Of a stretch of 64,000 nucleotides of DNA, positions 965-47,424 are shown piece by piece. Source of the stretch: Escherichia phage vB_EcoM_OE5505. Each line of letters starts with the position of its first letter. Position 1 is the first letter of the stretch. Position numbers and translations under genes: made by a program. Under the pieces are notes generated by a model. That model was given only the letters and a program-made list of their open reading frames with translations, was not told where the DNA came from and ran no database searches. The DNA is taken from sequence record NC_054926.1; one strand, given 5' to 3'.

Positions 965-2647
965 TTAAACCATTACAGTAAATCGACCAACTTTCTTCAT
1001 TTGAAGATGCTGACCGTATTCTTGCGGGTCATGGTCTTTATGCGAAATTATAAAGACATTAGTGTTTTTCATTGAATTTATAATATTAGCTACACCTTTA
1101 ATACCTTCGGCATCAAATGACCCGTCAAACACTTCATCGAGTATTAATGTACTAATACTAACACCAGATACAATAGAAGCAATATCACGCCAAGTAAATA
1201 AAAGAGCAATATCAATTCGTGCTTTTTCACCTTCACTAAATGAAGCATAACTAAAATCTTCACGACCACGGGATTTAATTGTCTCATTAAATTCTTCATC
1301 TAATGTAAACACATAATCCGCTTCCATTATTTTAAGATAATGGTTAATCTGCTTATTAAATAATGGAATGTACTTTTTAATAATAGCACCTTTAATACCA
1401 GAATCTTTGAGCATATCAGTCAAAATTCCTCGGTGGTATTTTTCCATTACTAAATTAGTTTTTGTCTTAACAATTTTATCAAGTTCTTCTTGAAGCAGTG
1501 CTATTTCATCAGCATGGTCAATAAACTCAGAAGATGCTTTTTCTATAGCCGCTTTAACCTTTTTAGCTTTATCTACTGTCGTGATTAGAGATTGCTTTTT
1601 ATTGCGAATATCATTTGCCAACGACTGTTGGGTTTTAATATTATCTCGGTATTCATCAACAAGAACTTTTAAATTATCACGATGTGTTGAAAGCTGTTCA
1701 AACGAATGCGTACATTCAGAAACTTTATCTTTAATTTTAGAAACAACTTTATCACCGGAACTCAATTGTGACAAACAGGTTGGACATAATCCACCTTCGT
1801 GATACATATTAATGACTTTATTATACGAGTCAATTTTTGATTTAATTAAAACTGCTTCTTGACCGATTTTATTAAATGCATCAGTCGGGTCTTCATCTAA
1901 AACAATATTAACTAATCTTTCATTAGCTTCTTCTATTTCAGATTTTAGCGTTCTAGCTTCTTTTGCCAAATCATCATACATATTTTGCAGACGAGTAAGG
2001 TTGTCACCCGTTAATTTTTTCTGGCGTTCAACGTTATCATTATATATTTTAATTTGTTGGATAATACTATCTTTTTTAACATCAAGCACTTGGTTCTGCG
2101 AATTTAATTCACGTATTAGTGCTTTATTAAGCTTATCCATTTCAGCTAATGTTCCTACCTCAAGCAGGTCTTCCACAAGCTTTCTTCGTGCAGGGGTCGA
2201 CAAACCCATGAAAGGGGTATACCCTGCTGTACCAAGGACAACAATCTGCTTGAAACTGGCATATGACATTCCGATAAGCTGTTCAAATTCTGCTTGGAAA
2301 TCTTTACTGCTGGCAGATTCATTAAGACGTGTACCGTTAACGGTGATTTCGAAAACGTTTGGTTTTTGTCCTCTTTTGATATAGTACTTTTTCTCATCAT
2401 ATTCCATCCACAGTTCAACTAAAAGTTCTTTCTTATTTGTGCTGTTTATTAATTGACCTTTCTTTACATCACGAAATGGTTTGCCAAAAAGCCCAAATGT
2501 GATGGCTTCTAACATAGTAGACTTACCACCGCCATTTCGTCCAGTAATAAGAGTTTTTTGAACCTTATCTAATTGAATGTCAATAGGATTTCCACCTACT
2601 GACATTATATTTTGATACCTAACTCGGTTTAGTTTAAAATTCTTCAC
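965..2647 (-). CDS. 46: Recombination endonuclease ATPase subunit gp46 (Rad50/SbcC-like)
   Basis: 560 aa; Walker A ITGRNGGGKST; long coiled-coil middle; C-terminal ABC signature region; GTG start with AAGGAA SD 8 nt upstream. Confidence 0.93.
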   Translation of the reverse strand: MKNFKLNRVRYQNIMSVGGNPIDIQLDKVQKTLITGRNGGGKSTMLEAITFGLFGKPFRDVKKGQLINSTNKKELLVELWMEYDEKKYYIKRGQKPNVFEITVNGTRLNESASSKDFQAEFEQLIGMSYASFKQIVVLGTAGYTPFMGLSTPARRKLVEDLLEVGTLAEMDKLNKALIRELNSQNQVLDVKKDSIIQQIKIYNDNVERQKKLTGDNLTRLQNMYDDLAKEARTLKSEIEEANERLVNIVLDEDPTDAFNKIGQEAVLIKSKIDSYNKVINMYHEGGLCPTCLSQLSSGDKVVSKIKDKVSECTHSFEQLSTHRDNLKVLVDEYRDNIKTQQSLANDIRNKKQSLITTVDKAKKVKAAIEKASSEFIDHADEIALLQEELDKIVKTKTNLVMEKYHRGILTDMLKDSGIKGAIIKKYIPLFNKQINHYLKIMEADYVFTLDEEFNETIKSRGREDFSYASFSEGEKARIDIALLFTWRDIASIVSGVSISTLILDEVFDGSFDAEGIKGVANIINSMKNTNVFIISHKDHDPQEYGQHLQMKKVGRFTVMV

Positions 2648-2907: not shown

Positions 2908-3094
2908 TATCTAAAATGTTGAAGTTAAAGGATACAGCCCAGTCAGTGCAGACCGTAACCTTTTTAATACAATTATCTTCAACCTCTAGCGGTTCAAACC
3001 AATATTCAATAATTTCTTTATGCCCAATATCATCTTTTACTTCGCATTCAAAATGCTGACTCATCATAACATTTTTAAATTCATCAAAAGTCAT
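2831..3094 (-). CDS. Hypothetical protein (87 aa)
   Basis: ATG at 3094 overlapping gp47 stop (ATGA). Confidence 0.5.
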   Translation of the reverse strand: MTFDEFKNVMMSQHFECEVKDDIGHKEIIEYWFEPLEVEDNCIKKVTVCTDWAVSFNFNILDNDTPKSLRDMAVSCIKDAYCEVFDI

Positions 3095-4110
3095 TGTGTT
3101 GCCTCTACATATAGCTGATTTGCATATTGAATAAGTGCTTCACGGTCAGAATCGGTGATGTCTGGAATTGCATTAATGTATTCTTCCATCAACGTCTGAA
3201 GAGATTGAACTTCAACCTCTTCGCTGTCATCTGACTCGACAGAGTTATCAATCTTTGACACAACTCGTAATGAATGCACAACTTTCTCTAGTTCAGATTC
3301 GAACTTCGTCAGATTTTTGTCTACTTCAGTTACTATAACACGTACTGATAGATTTGTAAAATCTTTATAGTCAATTTTTCCTTTAAATGGATAATGAATT
3401 CTACGATGCCAGGTAGTATTATTTGGAATAAATTCCATTCGTTCTGTTTCTGTATCAAACATCCAGAACCCACGAGGGTCATTCTCGTCACCTGCTGTTA
3501 GTGTCCATGGTGTCCCAATATATCTGACGTTAGCAGCCTCAGAAATAGTATGGAAGTGACCAGACCACACTTCTTTATAAGTCTTAAGGAAATCAGGTTC
3601 AAGACCATGAGATTTCATTCCTTTATAAAAATAAAATCCATTCAGTTCCCAGTGACCAACACAAAAAGAAGCAGATGAAGTTTTGATATGCTCAAGAATT
3701 TCACCAGTATTTTCTTCACACATCCAAGGAATTAAATCAATTAAACATCCGTCAAAATCTACTGTAGTAGGCTTATCATATACTTTAACATTAGGATATT
3801 TAGCCAAAAGCTCAGTAGAGGCATTTGGATGCATTACATTTTTATAGTGGAGATCGTGATTTCCTACAATAGTATGTAATGTGATTCCAGCACCATCAAG
3901 CATTTGAACTATTTCACGGGCAAACTCCATAGTTTTATGCGTGATTGCTTTTCGCACATCAAAAATATCACCATATTGAATCCATACAGTAATTCCATTT
4001 TTCTTAGAATATTCTATCGCTTGTTTAATTCCATCAATTTGAATACCGCGAATCCACTCATCATCAGCTTTAACGCCTAAATGCCAATCACCTAAATTTA
4101 AAATTTTCAT
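3091..4110 (-). CDS. 47: Recombination endonuclease nuclease subunit gp47 (Mre11/SbcD-like)
   Basis: 339 aa; calcineurin-like phosphoesterase motifs GDWHLG, GDIFD, GNHDLH. Confidence 0.93.
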   Translation of the reverse strand: MKILNLGDWHLGVKADDEWIRGIQIDGIKQAIEYSKKNGITVWIQYGDIFDVRKAITHKTMEFAREIVQMLDGAGITLHTIVGNHDLHYKNVMHPNASTELLAKYPNVKVYDKPTTVDFDGCLIDLIPWMCEENTGEILEHIKTSSASFCVGHWELNGFYFYKGMKSHGLEPDFLKTYKEVWSGHFHTISEAANVRYIGTPWTLTAGDENDPRGFWMFDTETERMEFIPNNTTWHRRIHYPFKGKIDYKDFTNLSVRVIVTEVDKNLTKFESELEKVVHSLRVVSKIDNSVESDDSEEVEVQSLQTLMEEYINAIPDITDSDREALIQYANQLYVEATQ

Positions 4111-9502: not shown

Positions 9503-9718
9503 TTAAGCCTTTTTATCAAGAACAGCATTCAGCTTGTTAGTAATTTTATCCAGACGCTCATTAAACTCACTAGAAGATAAGCCCTTTTCTGGAGAAATTA
9601 AACTAATCACGAAAAATATAGCAATAAAAGGAATAAGGAAAATAGCTCCAACTGCCATAAACAGAAAGAATGTTACAGTTGTAAGAAAATCAGCTAAACC
9701 TTTACGAAATTTATACAT
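9503..9718 (-). CDS. Small membrane protein (71 aa)
   Basis: Hydrophobic segment LTTVTFFLFMAVGAIFLIPFIAIFFVISLI. Confidence 0.5.
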   Translation of the reverse strand: MYKFRKGLADFLTTVTFFLFMAVGAIFLIPFIAIFFVISLISPEKGLSSSEFNERLDKITNKLNAVLDKKA

Positions 9719-18675: not shown

Positions 18676-19080
18676 TCAATTTTCAATTTTACTAAATACA
18701 CAGAATATGATGGAAAGGACTATATAAGCACCGCATACAGATTGAACTAATACCATTCCAAAGAACCAAACAATATTATCAAACAATGTCTGTTTTACGT
18801 CGAAAGGACGTAAACTTACAGTAATATTATCACCTTTTTCTATTGATGAATACATCTCTGGTGAAATATATTCACTAAATCTATAACCGTCTTTGAGTTC
18901 ATATACGGCAATAAACGATAAACTAGACCCCTTTCCTTGAGTTCCTGTAAGGGTATTAACTACAGTAACATCATAATCTTTATAATGCATATAATCATTA
19001 ATTGCGTAATAACCATATGCAATTACTATACATAAACAACATATCAATAAATTCAATCTTTTAATTATCAACTGTTTCAT
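18676..19080 (-). CDS. Membrane protein (134 aa, two predicted TM segments)
   Basis: N-terminal LLICCLCIVIAYGYYAI and C-terminal FFGMVLVQSVCGAYIVLSIIFCVF hydrophobic segments; middle-type promoter upstream. Confidence 0.55.
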   Translation of the reverse strand: MKQLIIKRLNLLICCLCIVIAYGYYAINDYMHYKDYDVTVVNTLTGTQGKGSSLSFIAVYELKDGYRFSEYISPEMYSSIEKGDNITVSLRPFDVKQTLFDNIVWFFGMVLVQSVCGAYIVLSIIFCVFSKIEN

Positions 19081-25911: not shown

Positions 25912-26124
25912 TCATTTTTGTCCTGTATTTACTTTATGCCGATGCACGGCCTTAACTTTATCAAGGTATTTTTCAAAATTTCGCAATCTAGTATAGTCTG
26001 CCGGAGATTGGTTGAGTGATACTTCTCGACGCAAAGCTGAAATGATATTTCCAACTTCCCTACGAATTTCATCTAATTGAAGAACAGTAAGATTGCGAAG
26101 TTGCTTTTCAGTTAATTGTAGCAT
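25912..26124 (-). CDS. Hypothetical protein (70 aa)
   Basis: ATG start between tk and rI. Confidence 0.5.
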
Positions 26125-26748: not shown

Positions 26749-26757
26749 ATCACCTTC

Positions 26758-26943
26758 TTAAAGCGTATTCACATAAGCTATTAATTCGTTTTCTTTCTTA
26801 TCAAACCGATCAGCAAATTCTTCTTGCTGATCGGGAGATAGCGGGCCGTATTCATCATAAAAGGTGTTTGCTTCTGTATGCTCATCTAGAAGTTCATGGA
26901 TAAGCTCAAACAATTTATCTTTTTGTTCTTTACTCAGACTCAT
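26758..26943 (-). CDS. Hypothetical acidic protein (61 aa)
   Basis: ATG start. Confidence 0.45.
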   Translation of the reverse strand: MSLSKEQKDKLFELIHELLDEHTEANTFYDEYGPLSPDQQEEFADRFDKKENELIAYVNTL

Positions 26944-27113
26944 ATATTAATTTCCAGGAGTTTTAAAATAATTCGCTTTTGCTTAAATATTTCCATAGTT
27001 AAATGACCAGTATCTTTTTGACCGATTCCAATGGCAAAACCTTTATTGACAGCGAGTTCAATTAAATTATCAAGCTCACGTAACACTTCATACTGTAACT
27101 CAAAACTATTCAT
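26940..27113 (-). CDS. Small hypothetical protein (57 aa), below threshold
   Basis: ATG at 27113; stop overlaps next start (ATGA). Confidence 0.3.
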   Translation of the reverse strand: MNSFELQYEVLRELDNLIELAVNKGFAIGIGQKDTGHLTMEIFKQKRIILKLLEINI

Positions 27114-27322
27114 TTCGGTTTACCTTCTTTAACGAAATCAGGATAAGGATAAAATCCTGAATAAAATCCTTCACCTTTATGATTGATGCATCCTTTATTA
27201 GAACAATAGCACCAATAATCGAAATCACAAGCCATTTCATCATTACATAAAGCAAAAACAACTGGCCATTCACACTTTTCGCAGTGGGCATTTTTAAGAA
27301 TACTAGTTTGGCTCATAACCAT
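27110..27322 (-). CDS. Cysteine-rich small protein (70 aa from ATG)
   Basis: 10 Cys incl. CEKCEW, CYCSNKGC; ORF-track start TTG. Confidence 0.4.
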   Translation of the reverse strand: MVMSQTSILKNAHCEKCEWPVVFALCNDEMACDFDYWCYCSNKGCINHKGEGFYSGFYPYPDFVKEGKPK

Positions 27323-27525
27323 GTAACCTTTAAACAATATTCTTCTACATGTTGTTTACGACCTTTCCTATCAATAAAGGTATATTCAACGAATGTTCCA
27401 ATATAGTCTTTATCTACATCATGTGGACTATTAATTGGGCATTTAGTACGGCAAATGCGTTCCCATTGACGAATAATTTCCACTTTGTTTTTAGGATCAA
27501 ACGGATGCGGGTAATGTACTTTCAT
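27313..27525 (-). CDS. Hypothetical protein (70 aa)
   Basis: ATG start; Cys/His-containing. Confidence 0.4.
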   Translation of the reverse strand: MKVHYPHPFDPKNKVEIIRQWERICRTKCPINSPHDVDKDYIGTFVEYTFIDRKGRKQHVEEYCLKVTWL

Positions 27526-27976
27526 AATCCACCACTATTAAATCAATATCAGGAGTAAACATGTCGATTAATTTAGAAACCTTATCCCAATCGCCGCCAG
27601 CAATACCGCAACCTATGCGTGGAATGTAAATTACTGGTTTAAACAAAAGGGTTTCTGCCTGTAGATTTAATTCTATCATGCAGTTTACTAAAGCACCATA
27701 ATCAAGATTAGGACCCGGTTCGTATTGTGTATACAGGTTATAGCATATACCAAATCCCGTAGGACTATGTTTAAAAACAATAGACATATCGCCTAATTTA
27801 TCACGAGAACCGTACTCGGTAGTGGTTTTATCTATTTCTAAAATTTTGGGATAGGCTCTTGCTAATTGACCCGCTACGCCAGAGCCCATTGTGTGGAAGC
27901 AATTGCACCCGTGCGCAATAATATTACCTTGAAGAAATAGGGCGACAATATCGCCCTTGATATATTTTACAATCAT
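27497..27976 (-). CDS. Macro-domain-like protein (putative ADP-ribose binding/processing), 159 aa
   Basis: Motifs GDIVALF...AHGCNCFHTMGSGVAGQLA and IYIPRIGCGIAGGDW resemble the two conserved macro-domain glycine-rich loops. Confidence 0.5.
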   Translation of the reverse strand: MIVKYIKGDIVALFLQGNIIAHGCNCFHTMGSGVAGQLARAYPKILEIDKTTTEYGSRDKLGDMSIVFKHSPTGFGICYNLYTQYEPGPNLDYGALVNCMIELNLQAETLLFKPVIYIPRIGCGIAGGDWDKVSKLIDMFTPDIDLIVVDYESTLPASV

Positions 27977-28314
27977 CTAGTACTCAATCCTCGATTATAA
28001 GAATCTACTAAACGGTCAACCATTGAATGACAAGCGGCTTTATCTTTCTCCTCCGCAACTGAACATTCTAAGGTATTCCACTTTTTAGCATATCGTTTTA
28101 ACAATGTATCATTTTTGTATCTGCTTGATTTATCTCTTTCTCCGTCTTTATATGCATATATTAATTTCTGCGCAAATTCAGCTTGGCATGCTTTATTTTT
28201 CCCGCAATAATCCGCTGCAGTACGGTTTACATACTCTCTAATTTCAGTATATGATGTATCTGCTAACACAGAAAATGAAATTAATCCTATACATAAAACC
28301 AAAATTTTAGTCAT
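27973..28314 (-). CDS. Secreted/periplasmic protein (113 aa)
   Basis: N-terminal signal peptide MTKILVLCIGLISFSVLA; 4 Cys in mature part. Confidence 0.5.
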   Translation of the reverse strand: MTKILVLCIGLISFSVLADTSYTEIREYVNRTAADYCGKNKACQAEFAQKLIYAYKDGERDKSSRYKNDTLLKRYAKKWNTLECSVAEEKDKAACHSMVDRLVDSYNRGLSTR

Positions 28315-28852
28315 TTACTATTTCCAAAAGTTTATTATTTTTAAGGTAATTAGCCTTTTCTAGGACTTCAGAAGCATATTTAGAACCTGCTTTAACATTC
28401 CATCCCGAATTATAAGATGATATTGCTTTTCTTATATCACCCTTATGTATATTTAACCAATAAGAAAGTTCAATGTACGCCCAGGAAGCTGAATTGGACC
28501 GTTTATTCAACATTCTTTTTATTTCAGCATCGGTCATATTATAACCAAGTTCCTTGACTCTCGCTCGCATAGTAGGCAAATAATTTTGGAACATTCCATA
28601 GGCATGATGCTTTGGTTTAGATTTTAAATTAACTCCGGCAGAGCTTTCTTGCCACAAAATAGCAGCCATTATATGACCTAATCCGCTCTTATGGATGTTT
28701 TTGTGTGTTTTATATTTTCCATCCTTAGAAAATTGTTCCCCGAATTGATACGCGTAACGCATGTTATCGAGTTGGACATTACTGAAAGTATGCTCGGAGC
28801 TATGTGCCATCATTGAAATGGCCAATAGACCAGCGAGTAGTGCTTTTCTCAT
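28307..28852 (-). CDS. Secreted lytic transglycosylase-like protein (SLT domain), 181 aa
   Basis: Signal peptide MRKALLAGLLAISMMAHS; SLT-type motif MAAILWQESSAG...YGMFQ. Confidence 0.6.
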   Translation of the reverse strand: MRKALLAGLLAISMMAHSSEHTFSNVQLDNMRYAYQFGEQFSKDGKYKTHKNIHKSGLGHIMAAILWQESSAGVNLKSKPKHHAYGMFQNYLPTMRARVKELGYNMTDAEIKRMLNKRSNSASWAYIELSYWLNIHKGDIRKAISSYNSGWNVKAGSKYASEVLEKANYLKNNKLLEIVND

Positions 28853-28859
28853 GCTTACC

Positions 28860-29321
28860 TCATTGAGTTTTAATTACTGCTTTAGAAGCCTTTCCTGGTA
28901 AACGACGACTATTGATAATTGCCATCCTGCATTGAAGCGACGGGTCTTTGAACTTCGCATTAGGTTTACAAACTGTAAATCCAAGCCAAAGATTTCCATC
29001 TGTGATTTCTAAACGTCCAGGACGGTATTCAACCCCATCAATAAAATCCTCATCAATGTCAGGACGCGGAGGCATACTCAGGAATTCATTAACTTCTAAA
29101 ACATGGTCTTTTATTTTGTGGAATAATTCAAAAACATATGTCTCATCAATCTCCCGTTGAATTGCACGATCAAGAAGATGTTGAGAATATTTTAGATGAA
29201 ACGATGAGACCCCTGCTGCTTTTGATGCCTCACGAATCTCATTGTTAATTTGACGAAACTCCGACTCAAAGTGACGACGAAGCTTATTTCGACGGATAAA
29301 AACTTCTGTATTGATAGTCAT
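28860..29321 (-). CDS. regB: Endoribonuclease RegB
   Basis: 153 aa; MTINTEVFIRRNKLRRHFESEFRQINNEIREA... matches recalled T4 RegB; early promoter directly upstream. Confidence 0.85.
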   Translation of the reverse strand: MTINTEVFIRRNKLRRHFESEFRQINNEIREASKAAGVSSFHLKYSQHLLDRAIQREIDETYVFELFHKIKDHVLEVNEFLSMPPRPDIDEDFIDGVEYRPGRLEITDGNLWLGFTVCKPNAKFKDPSLQCRMAIINSRRLPGKASKAVIKTQ

Positions 29322-29348: not shown

Positions 29349-29378
29349 ATTATACCACAGTCAAGAGGAAAAGTAAAC
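29349..29378 (-). promoter_or_regulatory. T4-type early promoter upstream of regB (GTTTAC - 18 nt - TGGTATAAT)
   Basis: Minus-strand consensus match. Confidence 0.65.
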
Positions 29379-40418: not shown

Positions 40419-40817
40419 TCAGCCTTCATCAACAATAGTGTGAGTATTAGCATTTACGATTTGCCACCAATCAAAGCGATTAGAATCCATCGGTTTGTTT
40501 TCATTTTCTTTGATAATGTCACGGAGTTCATCTTCAGAGAATGCTTTAGCAATTAAATCGGTATACCCACCACGGGGATAATAATTATCACCTGCAAACA
40601 AAAGGAAATTTACCTTCCCGGAAGCAACATATGCTTCCTTAGGATACTTGTTTCCTGCGTGGTCAACCACTTCAATATAACGGTAAGGAATATCGGTTCT
40701 TTCAACCCATTGCCATGCCGCCGCAGGGGAATCGAAAGCATCTACACCTAAACGATTATCTTCATCTTTAGACGGATTATTTTCGTAATCCGCATATACA
40801 TAATATTCAACGTTCAT
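40419..40817 (-). CDS. Hypothetical acidic protein (132 aa)
   Basis: ATG start; abuts next gene. Confidence 0.5.
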   Translation of the reverse strand: MNVEYYVYADYENNPSKDEDNRLGVDAFDSPAAAWQWVERTDIPYRYIEVVDHAGNKYPKEAYVASGKVNFLLFAGDNYYPRGGYTDLIAKAFSEDELRDIIKENENKPMDSNRFDWWQIVNANTHTIVDEG

Positions 40818-41002
40818 TATTCACCTTTAGAAATTTTATCCATAACAATAGCAATTAAACCAATTAAAAATGCTACTACAAGTGAAAACACATTTTCTGC
40901 TGTAGTCAATAATCCACATATAAATCCAACAAACATTGAAAAACTAAAAGCGGAAGCAGAAATTGCAATAGCAACATTTCGAATTAATTCACAACGTTTC
41001 AT
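40817..41002 (-). CDS. Small membrane protein (61 aa)
   Basis: Two hydrophobic segments; ATG start; early promoter 41031..41060. Confidence 0.45.
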   Translation of the reverse strand: MKRCELIRNVAIAISASAFSFSMFVGFICGLLTTAENVFSLVVAFLIGLIAIVMDKISKGE

Positions 41003-43798: not shown

Positions 43799-44623
43799 TT
43801 AGATATTTGACCAGACTTTGTTTGCAGAGAAACGTTTTCCTTTTGAAACGAACTGCTGAAGTGGCATTAACACAACGTTCGCCCAGTCTTTCGGGGCGAT
43901 TTCAACAAGGCTACCCATAATATTACCGGGGATATATGCCTTAATCATTTGGTCTGCACCCCTAAATCCTTTCACTTGACTCCAATCAATTTTTAATTTC
44001 GTTTTATTAGTAATAGTAGGTGTATTTGAATATTGCTTTAAAAGCTCTTCTAGAAATTGCTGACGAGCTTTAGGTGGAATATAGTGCAAGTTTAATCCAT
44101 ACATTAAATTATGCTTACCTAAACCAAGGTAAATTATTAAAGGAAATTTATCCCAGTAAGGAAGAGTTTCCTTGTGTTTAGCATCATAAGCAAAAGCATA
44201 TATTCGTCCCGGCTGCGGGCGAACAACTTTATGTCCTTTTACTTGCTTAATAGTTTCAGCAAACCACTTTCTGGTTTTATTATTAATTGCTGCACCTTCA
44301 TTACGAATTTTATCACGCAATGTTTGTCTGAATGAATTTATCATAAGCAGTTGTCTTTCTTGCTTATTGAGTTTATTCATTGGTTTTGATTCAAGCTTTT
44401 GAATCTTTTCAGCCGTTTTAATTCCTGAAGCATATTTTGACATTGCTGAAGTAAACGTAGAGTATTTGATTCCTCTTTCTTCAGCAAATTGCTTTCCTGT
44501 CATTCCTTTTGCTTTGGCCTTTTTATATTCAAGACCTATCTGAATCCATTTCTTTTCGTTTAATGATTGCTTAACCTTTGGAACTTGGGGAGTGCTTTCA
44601 TTAATTATTTGAAAAATAGCCAT
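43799..44623 (-). CDS. 2: DNA end protector protein gp2
   Basis: 274 aa, basic; ATG overlapping gp4 stop. Confidence 0.85.
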
Positions 44624-45075
44624 TATGCCCCCTTAAAGCCAAGAGCTCGTAATCCATCTTCTGTTAAAATTCTAAATTTTATTCCACGCTTTTCAGCTAA
44701 AGATTGTGCTGCTTTCCATTTGTCGGTGTTAACAGACCAGGTATAAATTTCATTCATAAATCTTTTCTTCGCTGCGGTTGTTAGATGCGCCGGTTTAACT
44801 GGTGGTTGTGTTTCTTTTTTAGGTTTTATTTCAATAAAAAATTCTTGTCCAGAAGAATCTTTCATCCAAATATCCATGAAGTATCTACGTTTTTTCCCTT
44901 CTGCATTACAAAAATAAGGAATTACTGCTGTTTCACTACCCCATGCAATAATTTCTGGATTTTTATCTAACCATTCAAAAAAGAATTTTTCCCAATTTGA
45001 TCTATACGTAATTTTTTTAGGGTCACCTCTATACTTTGATATATTTTTAGGAACCCATTTTCCAGAATATGCCAT
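44623..45075 (-). CDS. 4: Head completion protein gp4
   Basis: 150 aa; last minus-strand gene before divergent late promoters. Confidence 0.85.
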
Positions 45076-45086
45076 TGGATTCTCCT

Positions 45087-45094
45087 TATAAATA
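45087..45094 (+). promoter_or_regulatory. Late promoter TATAAATA for gene 53 operon
   Basis: Exact TATAAATA 29 nt upstream of gene 53 ATG. Confidence 0.65.
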
Positions 45095-45102
45095 GATAAT
45101 AT

Positions 45103-45110
45103 ATTTATAA
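45103..45110 (-). promoter_or_regulatory. Divergent late promoter TATAAATA for gene 4-2-3 direction
   Basis: Exact TATAAATA on minus strand 28 nt upstream of gene 4 ATG. Confidence 0.6.
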
Positions 45111-45122
45111 ACAGGAGGGCCC

Positions 45123-45713
45123 ATGCTCTTTACATTTTTTGATCCGATTGAATATGCGGCCAAAACGGTGAATAAAAACGCGCCGACTATTCCTATGACA
45201 GATATTTTTAGAAACTATAAAGACTATTTTAAACGCGCTCTTGCGGGATACCGCTTACGTACTTATTATATCAAAGGTTCACCACGCCCGGAAGAATTAG
45301 CAAATACTATATATGGAAATCCACAGTTGTATTGGGTTTTATTGATGTGTAATGATAATTATGACCCGTATTATGGATGGATTACTTCACAAGAAGCAGC
45401 TTATCAAGCATCTATACAAAAATACAAAAATGTAGGTGGAGACCAAATAGTATATCATGTGAATGAGAACGGTGAAAAATTTTATAATTTAATATCATAC
45501 GATGATAATCCATATGTTTGGTATGATAAAGGTGATAAAGCTAGAAAATATCCTCAATATGAAGGAGCACTTGCTGCTGTTAATACGTATGAAGATGCTG
45601 TTCTTGAAAATGAAAAACTTCGTCAAATAAAAATAATAGCAAAATCAGACATTAATTCATTTATGAACGACCTTATACGTATAATGGAGAAATCTTATGG
45701 AAATGATAAGTAA
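45123..45713 (+). CDS. 53: Baseplate wedge protein gp53
   Basis: 196 aa; late promoter TATAAATA at 45087..45094. Confidence 0.9.
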   Translation: MLFTFFDPIEYAAKTVNKNAPTIPMTDIFRNYKDYFKRALAGYRLRTYYIKGSPRPEELANTIYGNPQLYWVLLMCNDNYDPYYGWITSQEAAYQASIQKYKNVGGDQIVYHVNENGEKFYNLISYDDNPYVWYDKGDKARKYPQYEGALAAVNTYEDAVLENEKLRQIKIIAKSDINSFMNDLIRIMEKSYGNDK

Positions 45714-47424
45714 TAACCTTAATTGGTTTGTTGGTGTTGTTGAAGATAGAATGGACCCATTAAAATTAGGTCGTGTTCGTGTTCGTGTGGTTGGTCTGCA
45801 TCCACCTCAAAGAGCACAAGGCGATGTAATGGGTATTCCAACTGAAAAATTACCATGGATGTCAGTTATTCAACCTATAACTTCTGCAGCAATGTCTGGA
45901 ATTGGAGGTTCTGTTACTGGACCGGTAGAAGGAACTAGAGTTTATGGTCATTTTTTAGACAAATGGAAAACTAACGGAATTGTCCTTGGCACGTATGGTG
46001 GAATAGTTCGCGAAAAACCGAATAGACTTGAAGGATTTTCTGACCCAACTGGGCAATATCCTAGACGTTTAGGAAATGATACTAATGTATTAAACCAAGG
46101 CGGAGAAGTAGGATATGATTCGTCTTCTAACATTATCCAAGATAGTAACTTAGACACTGCAATAAATCCCGATGATAGACCACTATCAGAGATTCCAACC
46201 GATGATAATCCAAATATGTCAATGGCTGAAATGCTTCGCCGTGATGAAGGATTAAGATTAAAAGTTTATTGGGATACCGAAGGATATCCGACAATTGGTA
46301 TTGGTCATCTTATCATGAAGCAGCCAGTTCGTGATATGGCTCAAATTAATAAAGTTTTATCAAAACAAGTTGGTCGTGAAATTACTGGAAACCCAGGTTC
46401 TATTACGATGGAAGAGGCGACGACTTTATTTGAACGTGATTTGGCTGATATGCAACGGGACATTAAATCACATTCTAAAGTAGGACCAGTCTGGCAAGCT
46501 GTCAACCGTTCTCGTCAAATGGCGTTAGAAAATATGGCATTTCAGATGGGTGTTGGTGGTGTAGCTAAATTTAACACAATGTTAACTGCTATGTTAGCCG
46601 GAGATTGGGAAAAAGCATATAAAGCCGGTCGTGATTCATTGTGGTATCAACAAACAAAAGGCCGTGCATCCCGTGTTACCATGATTATTCTTACGGGAAA
46701 TTTAGAATCATATGGCGTTGAAGTGAAAACCCCAGCTAGGTCTCTATCAGCAATGGCTGCTACTGTAGCTAAATCTTCTGACCCTGCTGACCCTCCTATT
46801 CCAAATGACTCGAGAATTTTATTCAAAGAACCAGTTTCTTCATATAAAGGTGAATATCCTTATGTGCATACAATGGAAACTGAAAGTGGACATATTCAGG
46901 AATTTGATGATACCCCTGGGCAAGAACGATACAGATTAGTTCATCCAACTGGAACTTATGAAGAAGTATCACCGTCAGGAAGAAGAACAAGAAAAACTGT
47001 TGATAATTTGTATGATATAACCAACGCTGATGGTAATTTTTTGGTAGCCGGTGATAAAAAGACTAACGTCGGTGGATCAGAAATTTATTACAACATGGAT
47101 AATCGTCTTCACCAGATAGATGGAAGCAATACAATATTTGTACGTGGCGACGAAACGAAAACTGTTGAAGGCAATGGAACTATCCTAGTTAAAGGTAATG
47201 TTACTATTGTAGTTGAAGGTAATGCTGACATTACAGTTAAAGGAGATGCTACCACTTTAGTTGAAGGAAATCAAACTAACACAGTAAATGGAAATCTTTC
47301 TTGGAAAGTTGCTGGGACAGTTGATTGGGACGTTGGTGGTGATTGGACAGAAAAAATGGCATCTATGAGTTCTATTTCATCTGGTCAATACACAATTGAT
47401 GGATCGAGGATTGACATTGGCTAA
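45697..47424 (+). CDS. 5: Baseplate hub/cell-puncturing protein gp5 with lysozyme domain
   Basis: 575 aa; N-terminal OB region MEMISNNLNWFVGVVEDRMDP; lysozyme domain EGLRLKVYWDTEGYPTIGIGHLI; C-terminal beta-helix repeats VEGNGTILVKGNVTIVVEGNADITVKGDA. Confidence 0.95.
   Translation: MEMISNNLNWFVGVVEDRMDPLKLGRVRVRVVGLHPPQRAQGDVMGIPTEKLPWMSVIQPITSAAMSGIGGSVTGPVEGTRVYGHFLDKWKTNGIVLGTYGGIVREKPNRLEGFSDPTGQYPRRLGNDTNVLNQGGEVGYDSSSNIIQDSNLDTAINPDDRPLSEIPTDDNPNMSMAEMLRRDEGLRLKVYWDTEGYPTIGIGHLIMKQPVRDMAQINKVLSKQVGREITGNPGSITMEEATTLFERDLADMQRDIKSHSKVGPVWQAVNRSRQMALENMAFQMGVGGVAKFNTMLTAMLAGDWEKAYKAGRDSLWYQQTKGRASRVTMIILTGNLESYGVEVKTPARSLSAMAATVAKSSDPADPPIPNDSRILFKEPVSSYKGEYPYVHTMETESGHIQEFDDTPGQERYRLVHPTGTYEEVSPSGRRTRKTVDNLYDITNADGNFLVAGDKKTNVGGSEIYYNMDNRLHQIDGSNTIFVRGDETKTVEGNGTILVKGNVTIVVEGNADITVKGDATTLVEGNQTNTVNGNLSWKVAGTVDWDVGGDWTEKMASMSSISSGQYTIDGSRIDIG

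Follow-up and report, generated by a model that had tools for sequence, protein, structure and literature searches.

The region at positions 27497-28852 of the window, by which we mean the whole 64,000-nucleotide stretch of Escherichia phage vB_EcoM_OE5505 (NC_054926.1) that was analysed, belongs to a Tequatrovirus (T4-type phage) and forms the vs.1-vs-tk.4 part of its early transcription unit from regB to tk, an assignment that we hold with strong confidence for the identity of the three genes and for their general roles. The locus is ordinary except that Vs, annotated as a valyl-tRNA synthetase (ValRS) modifier, looks like an exported periplasmic protein. On balance, we favour a Vs that is exported, for the most part at least, and that adopts a four-helix bundle stapled by disulfides; Vs would then probably act in the compartment of Vs.1, the predicted murein-cleaving enzyme encoded next to it.

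Between positions 26000 and 30000, the nucleotide sequence is 98-99% identical to many Tequatrovirus genomes, and T4 gene names are given in LR746311.1. The encoded proteins are close to those of T4 (Vs.1, 99.4% identity; Vs, 96.5%; RegB, 99.3%; Tk, 99.0%), Tk.4 being at 56.6%. The genes tk.4, vs and vs.1 are known, long-catalogued T4 genes that occur in hundreds to thousands of phage records. As a gene find the locus is therefore of minor importance, and the role of the macrodomain against DarTG2 was already published in 2025.

The three open reading frames given in a preliminary description of this DNA are present with the lengths it reported, all on the minus strand, and they overlap (Table 1): vs.1 and vs share 8 nt, vs and tk.4 share 4 nt, and the 3' end of tk.4 is overlapped by tk.3 over 29 nt. 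Translation of vs.1, vs and tk.4 may be coupled through these overlaps of start and stop codons. That description had placed the two signal-peptide genes downstream of the macrodomain gene; the order is the reverse, since transcription runs from regB through vs.1 and vs to tk.4 and puts both of them upstream. A consensus scan located a sigma-70-like site upstream of regB that agrees with the consensus at 10 of 12 positions; although it is a consensus match only, it is likely to be the early promoter of a predicted regB-vs.1-vs-tk.4 transcript, on which vs.1, vs and tk.4 would be co-transcribed. No terminators were found between these genes in the same scan region. In T4, vs.1, vs and tk.4 fall into the class 'early RNA, middle protein' (PMC9697503 supplement), meaning that all three T4 proteins were detected (PMC9697503).

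Table 1. Positions in the window of the genes and sequence elements of the regB-tk.3 region
Feature	Position	Strand	Description
tk.3 (DUF7202)	27313-27525	-	next gene downstream; Pfam DUF7202 5.1e-37; named tk.3 in LR746311.1
divergent tk.4 segment	27492-27911	-	allelic replacement relative to T4
tk.4	27497-27976	-	159 aa ORF; adfM-type, stand-alone macrodomain
vs	27973-28314	-	113 aa ORF; annotated valyl-tRNA synthetase modifier
Vs signal peptide	28261-28314 (aa 1-18)	-	cleavage between VLA and DTS (rule-based)
vs.1	28307-28852	-	181 aa ORF; secreted SLT/GH23 murein-cleaving enzyme (predicted)
Vs.1 signal peptide	28799-28852 (aa 1-18)	-	cleavage between AHS and SEH (rule-based)
regB	28860-29321	-	first gene of the run; site-specific endoribonuclease; Pfam REGB_T4 1.4e-68
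sigma-70-like promoter	29349-29377	-	upstream of regB; TTTACT-17-TATAAT with TG extension

Both Vs and Vs.1 begin with a candidate Sec type I signal peptide. According to the rule-based analysis, the n-regions are short and basic (MTK in Vs, MRK in Vs.1) and are followed by an uncharged hydrophobic core of 15 residues in Vs and 13 in Vs.1, in keeping with h-regions of 10-15 residues, with small residues at -3/-1 directly after the core. The absence of cleavage sites had been named in the preliminary description as grounds for abandoning the idea of secretion; a rule-based site was found in each protein, and the predicted mature N-termini are DTSYTEIR for Vs and SEHTFSNVQLDNMR for Vs.1. Assignment of both signal peptides rests on these rules and on conservation among homologues, which extends to the character of the segment and not to its sequence. 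The pattern is more than a chance feature: among all 109 non-overlapping ORFs of the window, a crude screen found its textbook form in these two adjacent genes only. A lipoprotein signal was considered and rejected for both, as neither has a lipobox Cys.

Vs matched phrog_1256 (7.5e-40). When it was compared with T4 Vs (UniProt P13310), which is encoded at the same locus, every difference, namely a two-residue indel and substitutions, fell inside the signal peptide, and the mature part was 100% identical. The same pattern extends from T4 to RB43 and S16: the N-terminus varies freely in sequence with its signal-peptide character kept, and the mature part is conserved. Predicted cleavage would convert a precursor of 12.95 kDa into a mature protein of 95 aa and 11.0 kDa. 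Close homologues all have Cys37, Cys43, Cys84 and Cys95, distant ones retain them, and the AF2 model shows four helices (pLDDT 74.6). The cysteine spacing varies (C-x5/6/10-C and C-x8/10-C), unlike that of metal knuckles. In principle, the four cysteines could nevertheless bind metal instead of forming disulfides. The preliminary description of a secreted Cys-containing protein was hence borne out with respect to the signal peptide and the conserved cysteines, but it missed that the protein is Vs, annotated with a cytoplasmic role. This published role of T4 Vs is in contrast with the exported look of its sequence.

For Vs.1, the earlier view of an SLT/GH23-type protein with a signal peptide was upheld. 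It matched Pfam SLT (PF01464) at residues 61-154 with an E-value of 4.8e-5 and 23.4 bits, a narrow margin above the cut-off of 21.3, and phrog_600 at 5.6e-69. The motifs E69-S70, G86-M-F-Q89 and S146-Y-N-S-G150 are those of the SLT/GH23 family 1, with the catalytic Glu69 encoded at 28646-28648, and residues E69, G86, F88, Q89, Y147, N148 and G150 do not vary among 31 homologues. The motifs are kept in the Cba120, KhF3, RB43 and phiAS4 homologues as well, and the signal peptide together with the motifs in homologues of Aeromonas and RB43-type phages, Ackermannviridae and Felixounavirus. A PDB sequence search with Vs.1 gave no match, and its placement is by Pfam and fold comparison only. In Foldseek, the AF2 model (pLDDT 88.2) retrieved MltD, a GH23 chitinase, Slt, LtgA and the phi6 lysin as top PDB matches; the top 23 were all lytic transglycosylases or GH23 chitinase, with probabilities of 0.69-1.0 (at least 0.98 for the top 20) and modest TM values of about 0.4-0.55 and E-values of about 1e-2 to 0.4. 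We are confident, on the strength of this model, that Vs.1 has a lysozyme-like alpha-helical, lytic-transglycosylase-like fold.

Vs.1 resembles the family 1 lytic transglycosylases (Slt70 of E. coli, Slt and MltD of P. aeruginosa, LtgA of Neisseria) in its fold, its predicted periplasmic location, the catalytic Glu-Ser and the G-x-x-Q and (A/S)-Y-N-x-G motifs. Unlike these enzymes, it is phage-encoded, made early and reduced to one minimal domain (about 160 aa), without the superhelical, LysM or lipid anchor parts. The searchable literature reports neither a function nor muralytic activity for vs.1. We think it quite likely that Vs.1 is both exported and active: it would be made with a cleavable Sec signal peptide, reach the periplasm and there cut murein glycan strands, Glu69 serving as the sole catalytic acid as in SLT-family lytic transglycosylases. 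Its fold, motifs and signal peptide were obtained in silico, and its enzyme activity and biological role are predicted from them. We also considered a SAR (signal-anchor-release) endolysin like P1 Lyz, which is less likely because the hydrophobic core spans no more than about 13 residues and every homologue has a good -3/-1 site after it.

A possible relationship between Vs and Vs.1 emerges from published T4 Tn-seq data, in which the insertion counts of both genes were about 10-fold below those of neighbouring genes. In M9 medium, vs had a log2FC of -2.19 (adjusted p 0) and vs.1 a log2FC of -0.87 (p 0.0055, adjusted p 0.155), and tk.4 was unchanged. The low counts in vs.1 could partly reflect polarity on vs. 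Vs has every hallmark of export and a fitness phenotype in common with the neighbouring secreted murein enzyme. Spackle of T4 is a small protein with a signal peptide, mostly helical and with disulfides, which acts as a periplasmic inhibitor of the gp5 lysozyme; by analogy, and as a lead, this description also fits a possible Vs-Vs.1 relationship. Sequence and fold similarity between Spackle and Vs was sought and none was detected. Our fullest proposal is a tentative one and is as yet unlikely to be right in all its parts: Vs, which has borne its cytoplasmic ValRS annotation for forty years, may be a Sec-exported, disulfide-stapled periplasmic protein that works with the translationally coupled Vs.1, for instance by regulating or inhibiting it, as Spackle does with the gp5 lysozyme; the association with ValRS would be secondary, a post-lysis artefact or the result of a mis-assigned ORF; and the vs/vs.1 pair would form a murein-remodelling module that matters for yield in poor media. 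For superinfection exclusion, which had been suggested as a function of the two secreted proteins, no specific support was found.

Profile and sequence matches identify the third product, Tk.4, as a true macrodomain, in agreement with the preliminary description, and place it in the TARG1/DarG/Poa1p branch. It matched Pfam Macro (PF01661; E-value 1.3e-7, 32 bits against a cut-off of 22) over positions 2-117 of the 118 in the profile, and both of the glycine-rich loops quoted earlier are present (M30-G31-S32-G33-V34-A35 and G122-C123-G124-I125-A126-G127-G128), with G33, A35, G122 and G124 invariant or nearly so across 118 family sequences. Sequence matches in the PDB comprised BT1257 (3.7e-10), Poa1p, SCO6735, the DarG macrodomain (4.9e-5) and TARG1, and the DarG profiles of NCBIfam and PADLOC were the best family matches in both libraries, at about 1e-6 and over the macrodomain part only. 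The closest solved sequences, yeast Poa1p, BT1257 and SCO6735, share the H-x-C-N and PRIGCG(I/L)AGG motifs with Tk.4, but they come from cells, act on small molecules or proteins and are not known to take part in phage defence. Databases label the Tk.4 family 'phosphatase' or A1pp, and in Vibrio phages related macro genes adjoin a ribose-phosphate pyrophosphokinase gene, an NAD-salvage context. Tk.4 belongs to phrog_335 (1.2e-71), as does T4 Tk.4/AdfM; homology and the conserved position between vs and tk.3 place the two in one orthologue group, and they are of about equal length and share the invariant residues H22, N25, N80, Y82, T83, Q84 and W130.

Tk.4 shares the ALC1-like fold class and the ADP-ribose loops with the DarG macrodomains of M. 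tuberculosis (5M3I) and T. aquaticus (5M31/5M3E) and with human TARG1. Assessment of its catalytic residues, which had been recommended at the outset, gave a divided answer once the DarG sequences and their numbering had been verified. Asn25 aligns with DarG N22, a position at which all 118 family members have Asn, so that the asparagine of a DarG/TARG1-type site is in place, whereas the lysine (DarG K80, TARG1 K84) is replaced by Gln84 (codon 27725-27727), again in all 118 members. Because this lysine is an invariant Gln and the position of TARG1 D125 is Ala in the family, DarG-like chemistry cannot be assumed for Tk.4. Identification of Tk.4 as a DarG was rejected: against NCBIfam NF048014 it scored 27.7 bits (cut-off 250) with only positions 2-142 of 338 matched and the catalytic Lys absent, and at 159 aa in total it lacks the C-terminal DarT-binding domain.

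In T4, tk.4 was named AdfM (anti-DarT factor, macrodomain) in 2025, since its deletion sensitises the phage to DarTG2, a defence that modifies DNA by ADP-ribosylation of thymidines. When a T4 transposon library was exposed to DarTG2, no gene other than tk.4 gave a significant hit, and sensitivity was seen again after clean deletion of tk.4 (bioRxiv 10.1101/2025.11.20.689424). The earlier suggestion that the macrodomain could reverse ADP-ribosylation agrees with this work on the T4 orthologue. A different stand-alone phage macrodomain, the 'AdfM' gp104 of PhiKZ, from the nucleus-forming phages, also protects against DarTG2 and strips DarT2-made ADP-ribose off ssDNA in vitro (Cell Rep 2026, PMC13309987); unlike the T4-type family with its Gln at the Lys position, this hydrolase keeps the DarG-type N23/K78. 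We regard it as likely that Tk.4 removes DarT2-made ADP-ribose from phage DNA. In the cytoplasm, it would bind the ADP-ribose put on phage DNA by the host toxin DarT2 and hydrolyse it off, which would allow replication to go on. The evidence for the anti-DarTG2 role is genetic for the T4 allele; for the allele of the window, 57% identical, the role is predicted, as is hydrolysis for both. The nucleotide identity to T4 is 42-77% in the divergent segment (Table 1) as compared with 95-100% in vs, vs.1 and regB; the flanks are 96-100% identical, and 43% of the Tk.4 residues are not those of the tested T4 allele, as a result of this replaced segment.

The exported, disulfide-stapled form of Vs has to be weighed against a purely cytoplasmic, ValRS-binding Vs, which we rate as the lesser but still appreciable possibility. 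The N-terminus would then be no working export signal, perhaps a membrane tether or a part of the fold, the cysteines would bind metal or stay reduced, and the adjacency of vs.1 would be coincidental. Classical work of the 1970s and 1980s reportedly assigned to the vs product a factor of about 10 kDa which binds ValRS in the cytoplasm and stabilises it, with effects seen in vivo in valS(ts) hosts; this argues for a cytoplasmic pool of Vs. That mass is, however, nearer to that of mature Vs than to that of the precursor, which would imply that the factor was cleaved and hence exported. The ValRS-modifying assignment is repeated in PMC8076793 and in the HIDEN-SEQ preprint, and the nutrient-dependent phenotype of a vs deletion in M9 medium (HIDEN-SEQ preprint) fits a translation-related role. 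In the bundle, the H1-H2 and H3-H4 loops would lie at the same end, and the four Cys could form one metal site; the variable cysteine spacing speaks against this. Also against a cytoplasmic Vs are the presence of all three parts of a Sec signal peptide in an N-terminus that varies in sequence yet not in character, the insolubility of N-terminally His-tagged T4 Vs (PMC8076793), and the fitness pattern of vs.1 mutants, which is the same as that of vs.

Less probable are the competing accounts of the two other proteins. Vs.1 might be an SLT-like protein whose catalysis is irrelevant or which only binds murein, or it might help lysis as an accessory enzyme at the end of infection, with no wall remodelling during infection. 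T4 vs.1 is non-essential, T4 encodes lysozyme E (its endolysin) and the gp5 lysozyme besides, and the Pfam and Foldseek scores of Vs.1 are modest. We nevertheless consider this account improbable, as neither the catalytic Glu nor any of the family motifs varies over about 40-99% identity and three phage families, which argues for retained enzyme activity; moreover, vs.1 yields an early transcript and a middle-period protein, not a late one with the lysis genes, and insertions in it carry a measurable fitness cost. We are similarly sceptical that Tk.4 is a macrodomain directed at small molecules or proteins, and not a DNA de-ADP-ribosylase, in which case protection from DarTG2 would be indirect. 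It might then act as an ADP-ribose-1''-phosphate phosphatase like yeast Poa1p, as an O-acetyl-ADP-ribose deacetylase, or as an eraser of protein/RNA ADP-ribosylation by T4 Alt, ModA and ModB. Its best sequence matches are indeed BT1257 and Poa1p and not DarG, and the replaced Lys and Asp residues, the database labels and the Vibrio phage gene neighbourhood point the same way. However, the unique position of tk.4 in the DarTG2 screen, with which the clean deletion agrees, the DarG profiles as best family matches and the retained N22 equivalent are in favour of removal of ADP-ribose from DNA.

If T4-type AdfM is really a DNA de-ADP-ribosylase, its chemistry differs, since it is without the lysine needed by DarG and TARG1. 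The tk.4 gene is a sharply bounded hot spot of allelic replacement between near-identical flanks, the signature expected of an arms-race counter-defence gene, and this pattern suggests that differing alleles may match differing DarT2 variants. As for Vs, its export, if true, could explain why a purpose of 'ValRS modification' was never found.

The three minus-strand ORFs were found in the ORF listing where the preliminary description had placed them, and its observation as a whole proved correct. The interpretation attached to it was right in outline and wrong on gene order. In a Tequatrovirus record that uses T4 names (LR746311.1), transcription runs regB, vs.1, vs, tk.4, tk.3 ... tk, rI.1, rI; hence the two signal-peptide genes lie upstream of the macrodomain gene, and "downstream" is true of plus-strand coordinates only. 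Neighboring frames overlap by 4 nt (vs/tk.4) and 8 nt (vs.1/vs), regB is preceded by a promoter-like site, and a scan of the gene run found no terminator between regB, vs.1, vs and tk.4. The T4 counterparts of the three genes give early RNA and their proteins are seen in the middle period (PMC9697503 supplement).

The window is AT-rich (G+C ~35%), with minus-strand genes as far as ~44 kb, and the 4 kb around vs.1-vs-tk.4 shares 98-99% identity with many Tequatrovirus genomes. The GC skew turns from negative to positive at ~44000-46000, which fits the coding-strand switch from the early/middle block to plus-strand genes. Between tk and tk.3 the gene content is unlike that of T4: tk.1 has no counterpart, tk.2 leaves a weak 68% match only, and RB32-type small ORFs fill the interval.

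Features of the locus, of the wider window and of related phages
Feature	Position	Strand	Remarks
vs.1	28307-28852	-	181 aa, ORF listing
vs	27973-28314	-	113 aa, ORF listing
tk.4	27497-27976	-	159 aa, ORF listing
Low-identity 60-nt bin	28212-28271		82% nucleotide identity with T4
Hairpin (AGGGCGATATTGTCGCCCT) and T-rich tract	27939-27957	both	G+C-rich, 7-8 bp; tk.4 codons 7-13
Divergent segment inside tk.4	27492-27911	-	42-77% nucleotide identity with T4
75 aa phage zinc-binding domain protein	27110-27337	-	PF23895, among RB32-type small ORFs
Interval between tk and tk.3	26749-27312	-	Gene content unlike T4
Small ORF	9503-9718	-	Strongly hydrophobic N-terminal segment
Small ORF	18676-19080	-	Strongly hydrophobic N-terminal segment
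Small ORF	40817-41002	-	Strongly hydrophobic N-terminal segment
S16 gp67.1	L002 (Salmonella phage S16) 2366-2767		Signal-peptide-like N-terminus
phiAS4 ORF175	L003 (Aeromonas phage phiAS4) 2563-3003		Lipoprotein-like MKKSIAAVLALSIYGC start
RB43 ORF150	L004 (RB43) 3077-3400		107 aa, unannotated
Vs.1 homologue, FelixO1-like phage	L006 (KhF3) 1501-2049		Straight after rIIA-rIIB, behind terminator

The macro domain proposed for the 159 aa protein was borne out, with Pfam Macro matching above its cut-off across the whole domain and PHROG 335 at 1.2e-71. Solved relatives are BT1257 (3.7e-10), yeast Poa1p, Streptomyces SCO6735, the DarG macrodomain (4.9e-5) and TARG1. DarG profiles were the only notable matches in NCBIfam and PADLOC, covering the macrodomain portion only and scoring far under the membership cut-off. 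When DarG sequences from the PDB search and TARG1 were aligned to Tk.4 and 117 family members, DarG N22 corresponded to Tk.4 N25 and the DarG K80/TARG1 K84 position to Gln84, both invariant (118/118), while the TARG1 D125 position was occupied by Ala126. Of the TARG1 sequence used, the C-terminal part was confirmed with tools; the DarG mapping is independent of TARG1. Judged from these alignments, Tk.4 is a macrodomain of the DarG/TARG1 branch and very probably has the same biological role. Its active site is not of the DarG type, and its chemistry may differ.

In T4, tk.4 was the sole transposon hit under DarTG2, a result confirmed by clean deletion; the authors named the gene adfM and proposed enzymatic removal of ADP-ribose from DNA (bioRxiv 10.1101/2025.11.20.689424). 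PhiKZ gp104 was separately named AdfM in a 2026 paper; unlike Tk.4, it retains the DarG-type N23/K78 pair, and it strips DarT2-made ADP-ribose off ssDNA in vitro (PMC13309987). FelixO1-like phage genomes also encode a Tk.4-like macrodomain, at another place than their Vs.1 homologue.

Comparison with T4 (NC_000866) revealed protein identities of 99.4% for Vs.1, 99.3% for RegB, 99.0% for Tk and 96.5% for Vs, against only 56.6% for Tk.4. Nucleotide identity was 95-100% across regB, vs.1 and vs, save for one bin over an indel in the Vs signal peptide. It fell within tk.4 and recovered in tk.3; tk.4, an anti-defence gene, has thus been swapped for another allele, a clean allelic replacement relative to T4. 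The allele occurs at >=90% identity in 311 phage records (tblastn), and the T4-type allele, ~58% identical to it, in many other Tequatroviruses; at least two tk.4 allele classes circulate in Tequatrovirus. A hairpin followed by a T-rich tract sits within the conserved 5' end of tk.4, directly ahead of the divergent segment. It may act in translation or RNA stability, may mark a recombination boundary, or may have arisen by chance.

Vs matches PHROG 1256, "valyl tRNA synthetase modifier", at 7.5e-40. Its N-terminus (MTK, 15 hydrophobic residues, then VLA/DTS) is a predicted signal peptide, leaving a mature protein of 11.0 kDa; all differences from T4 fall within the first 18-20 residues, and mature Vs is therefore identical in the two phages. 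Of 109 window ORFs, none but Vs and Vs.1 has the textbook pattern of a signal peptide. Three further small ORFs have hydrophobic N-termini more like membrane anchors than like signal peptides that are cleaved off. The Vs family is tiny (a word search gave 6 clusters, and a profile search 8 representatives out of 1.84 billion), with more distant members found in S16 and RB43 by reading adjoining ORFs. Every member retains four cysteines, whose spacing varies, and an N-terminus that is hydrophobic but variable in sequence. The model of Vs comprises four helices, and its cysteine pairs fall on the turns from H1 to H2 and from H3 to H4. Searches of Pfam, PDB sequences and folds returned no informative relative. 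The picture from sequence and model is that of a putative periplasmic, disulfide-bonded protein, at odds with the annotated cytoplasmic role.

Binding of the Vs factor to ValRS is reported second-hand in PMC8076793 and bioRxiv 10.1101/2025.11.20.689424; the former also describes N-terminally His-tagged T4 Vs as insoluble, and the latter describes impaired plaques of a vs deletion in M9 glucose. RB43 ORF150 is a distant Vs relative carrying a signal peptide, four Cys, QLDAAY..GE and a LVDEYNAGI C-terminus; it was missed by the HMMER searches, so the family is wider than they suggest. An 80 aa ENA metagenome protein (P0006), identical to Vs in its C-terminal half and unrelated in its N-terminal half, probably results from a frameshift or chimera in gene calling; the Vs profile was built without it.

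Vs.1 matches Pfam SLT barely over the cut-off, a marginal match reported earlier (Nolan et al., 2006), and PHROG 600 at 5.6e-69. A comparison of 31 homologues, the most distant at 41% identity, places E69 (S70 comes next), G86, F88, Q89, Y147, N148 and G150 among the invariant residues. They correspond to the motifs E-S, G-x-x-Q and (A/S)-Y-N-x-G known from lytic transglycosylases of family 1; E128 is the sole other invariant acidic residue. AlphaFold models Vs.1 with confidence (pLDDT 88.2) everywhere but in an N-terminal helix, where confidence is low, and the best PDB fold matches of this model are MltD, a GH23 chitinase, Slt, LtgA and the phi6 lysin. A signal peptide is predicted (MRK, 13 uncharged residues, AHS/SEH). 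Vs.1 has homologues in 2012 phage records, those of Aeromonas and RB43-type Straboviridae, Ackermannviridae and Felixounavirus among them, and all five that were read (S16, a Gelderlandvirus; phiAS4; RB43; Cba120; KhF3, a Felixounavirus) retain signal peptide and motifs. Other T4-like phages encode extra exported-looking proteins between vs.1 and the macro gene, a locus that seems to gather envelope proteins.

T4 Tn-seq data (bioRxiv 10.1101/2025.11.20.689424, Ext. Data Table 6, sheets S3, S4 and S8) put the mean insertion counts of vs and vs.1 in LB at 26.6 and 22.6, next to 178.6 for regB, 289.6 for tk.4, 652 for vs.3 and 767 for tk.3. Even in LB, vs and vs.1 lie ~10-fold under all neighboring non-essential genes. 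In M9, vs fell to 5.0 (log2FC -2.19, adjusted p 0), vs.1 trended to 11.9 (log2FC -0.87, p 0.0055, adjusted p 0.155) and tk.4 was unchanged. Two further control sets repeat this pattern. The paper's discussion covers vs alone. Polarity of vs.1 insertions on vs may contribute to the vs.1 phenotype, although the authors argue that polar effects were not widespread. The shared insertion pattern, together with the overlapping frames and the shared predicted compartment, suggests a joint function of vs and vs.1.

All three are known T4 genes and the macrodomain role was recently published. The remaining interest lies in a T4-type AdfM family that lacks the catalytic lysine, in the allelic replacement of tk.4, and in the export signature of Vs, for which there is no explanation yet, along with a possible Vs-Vs.1 partnership.
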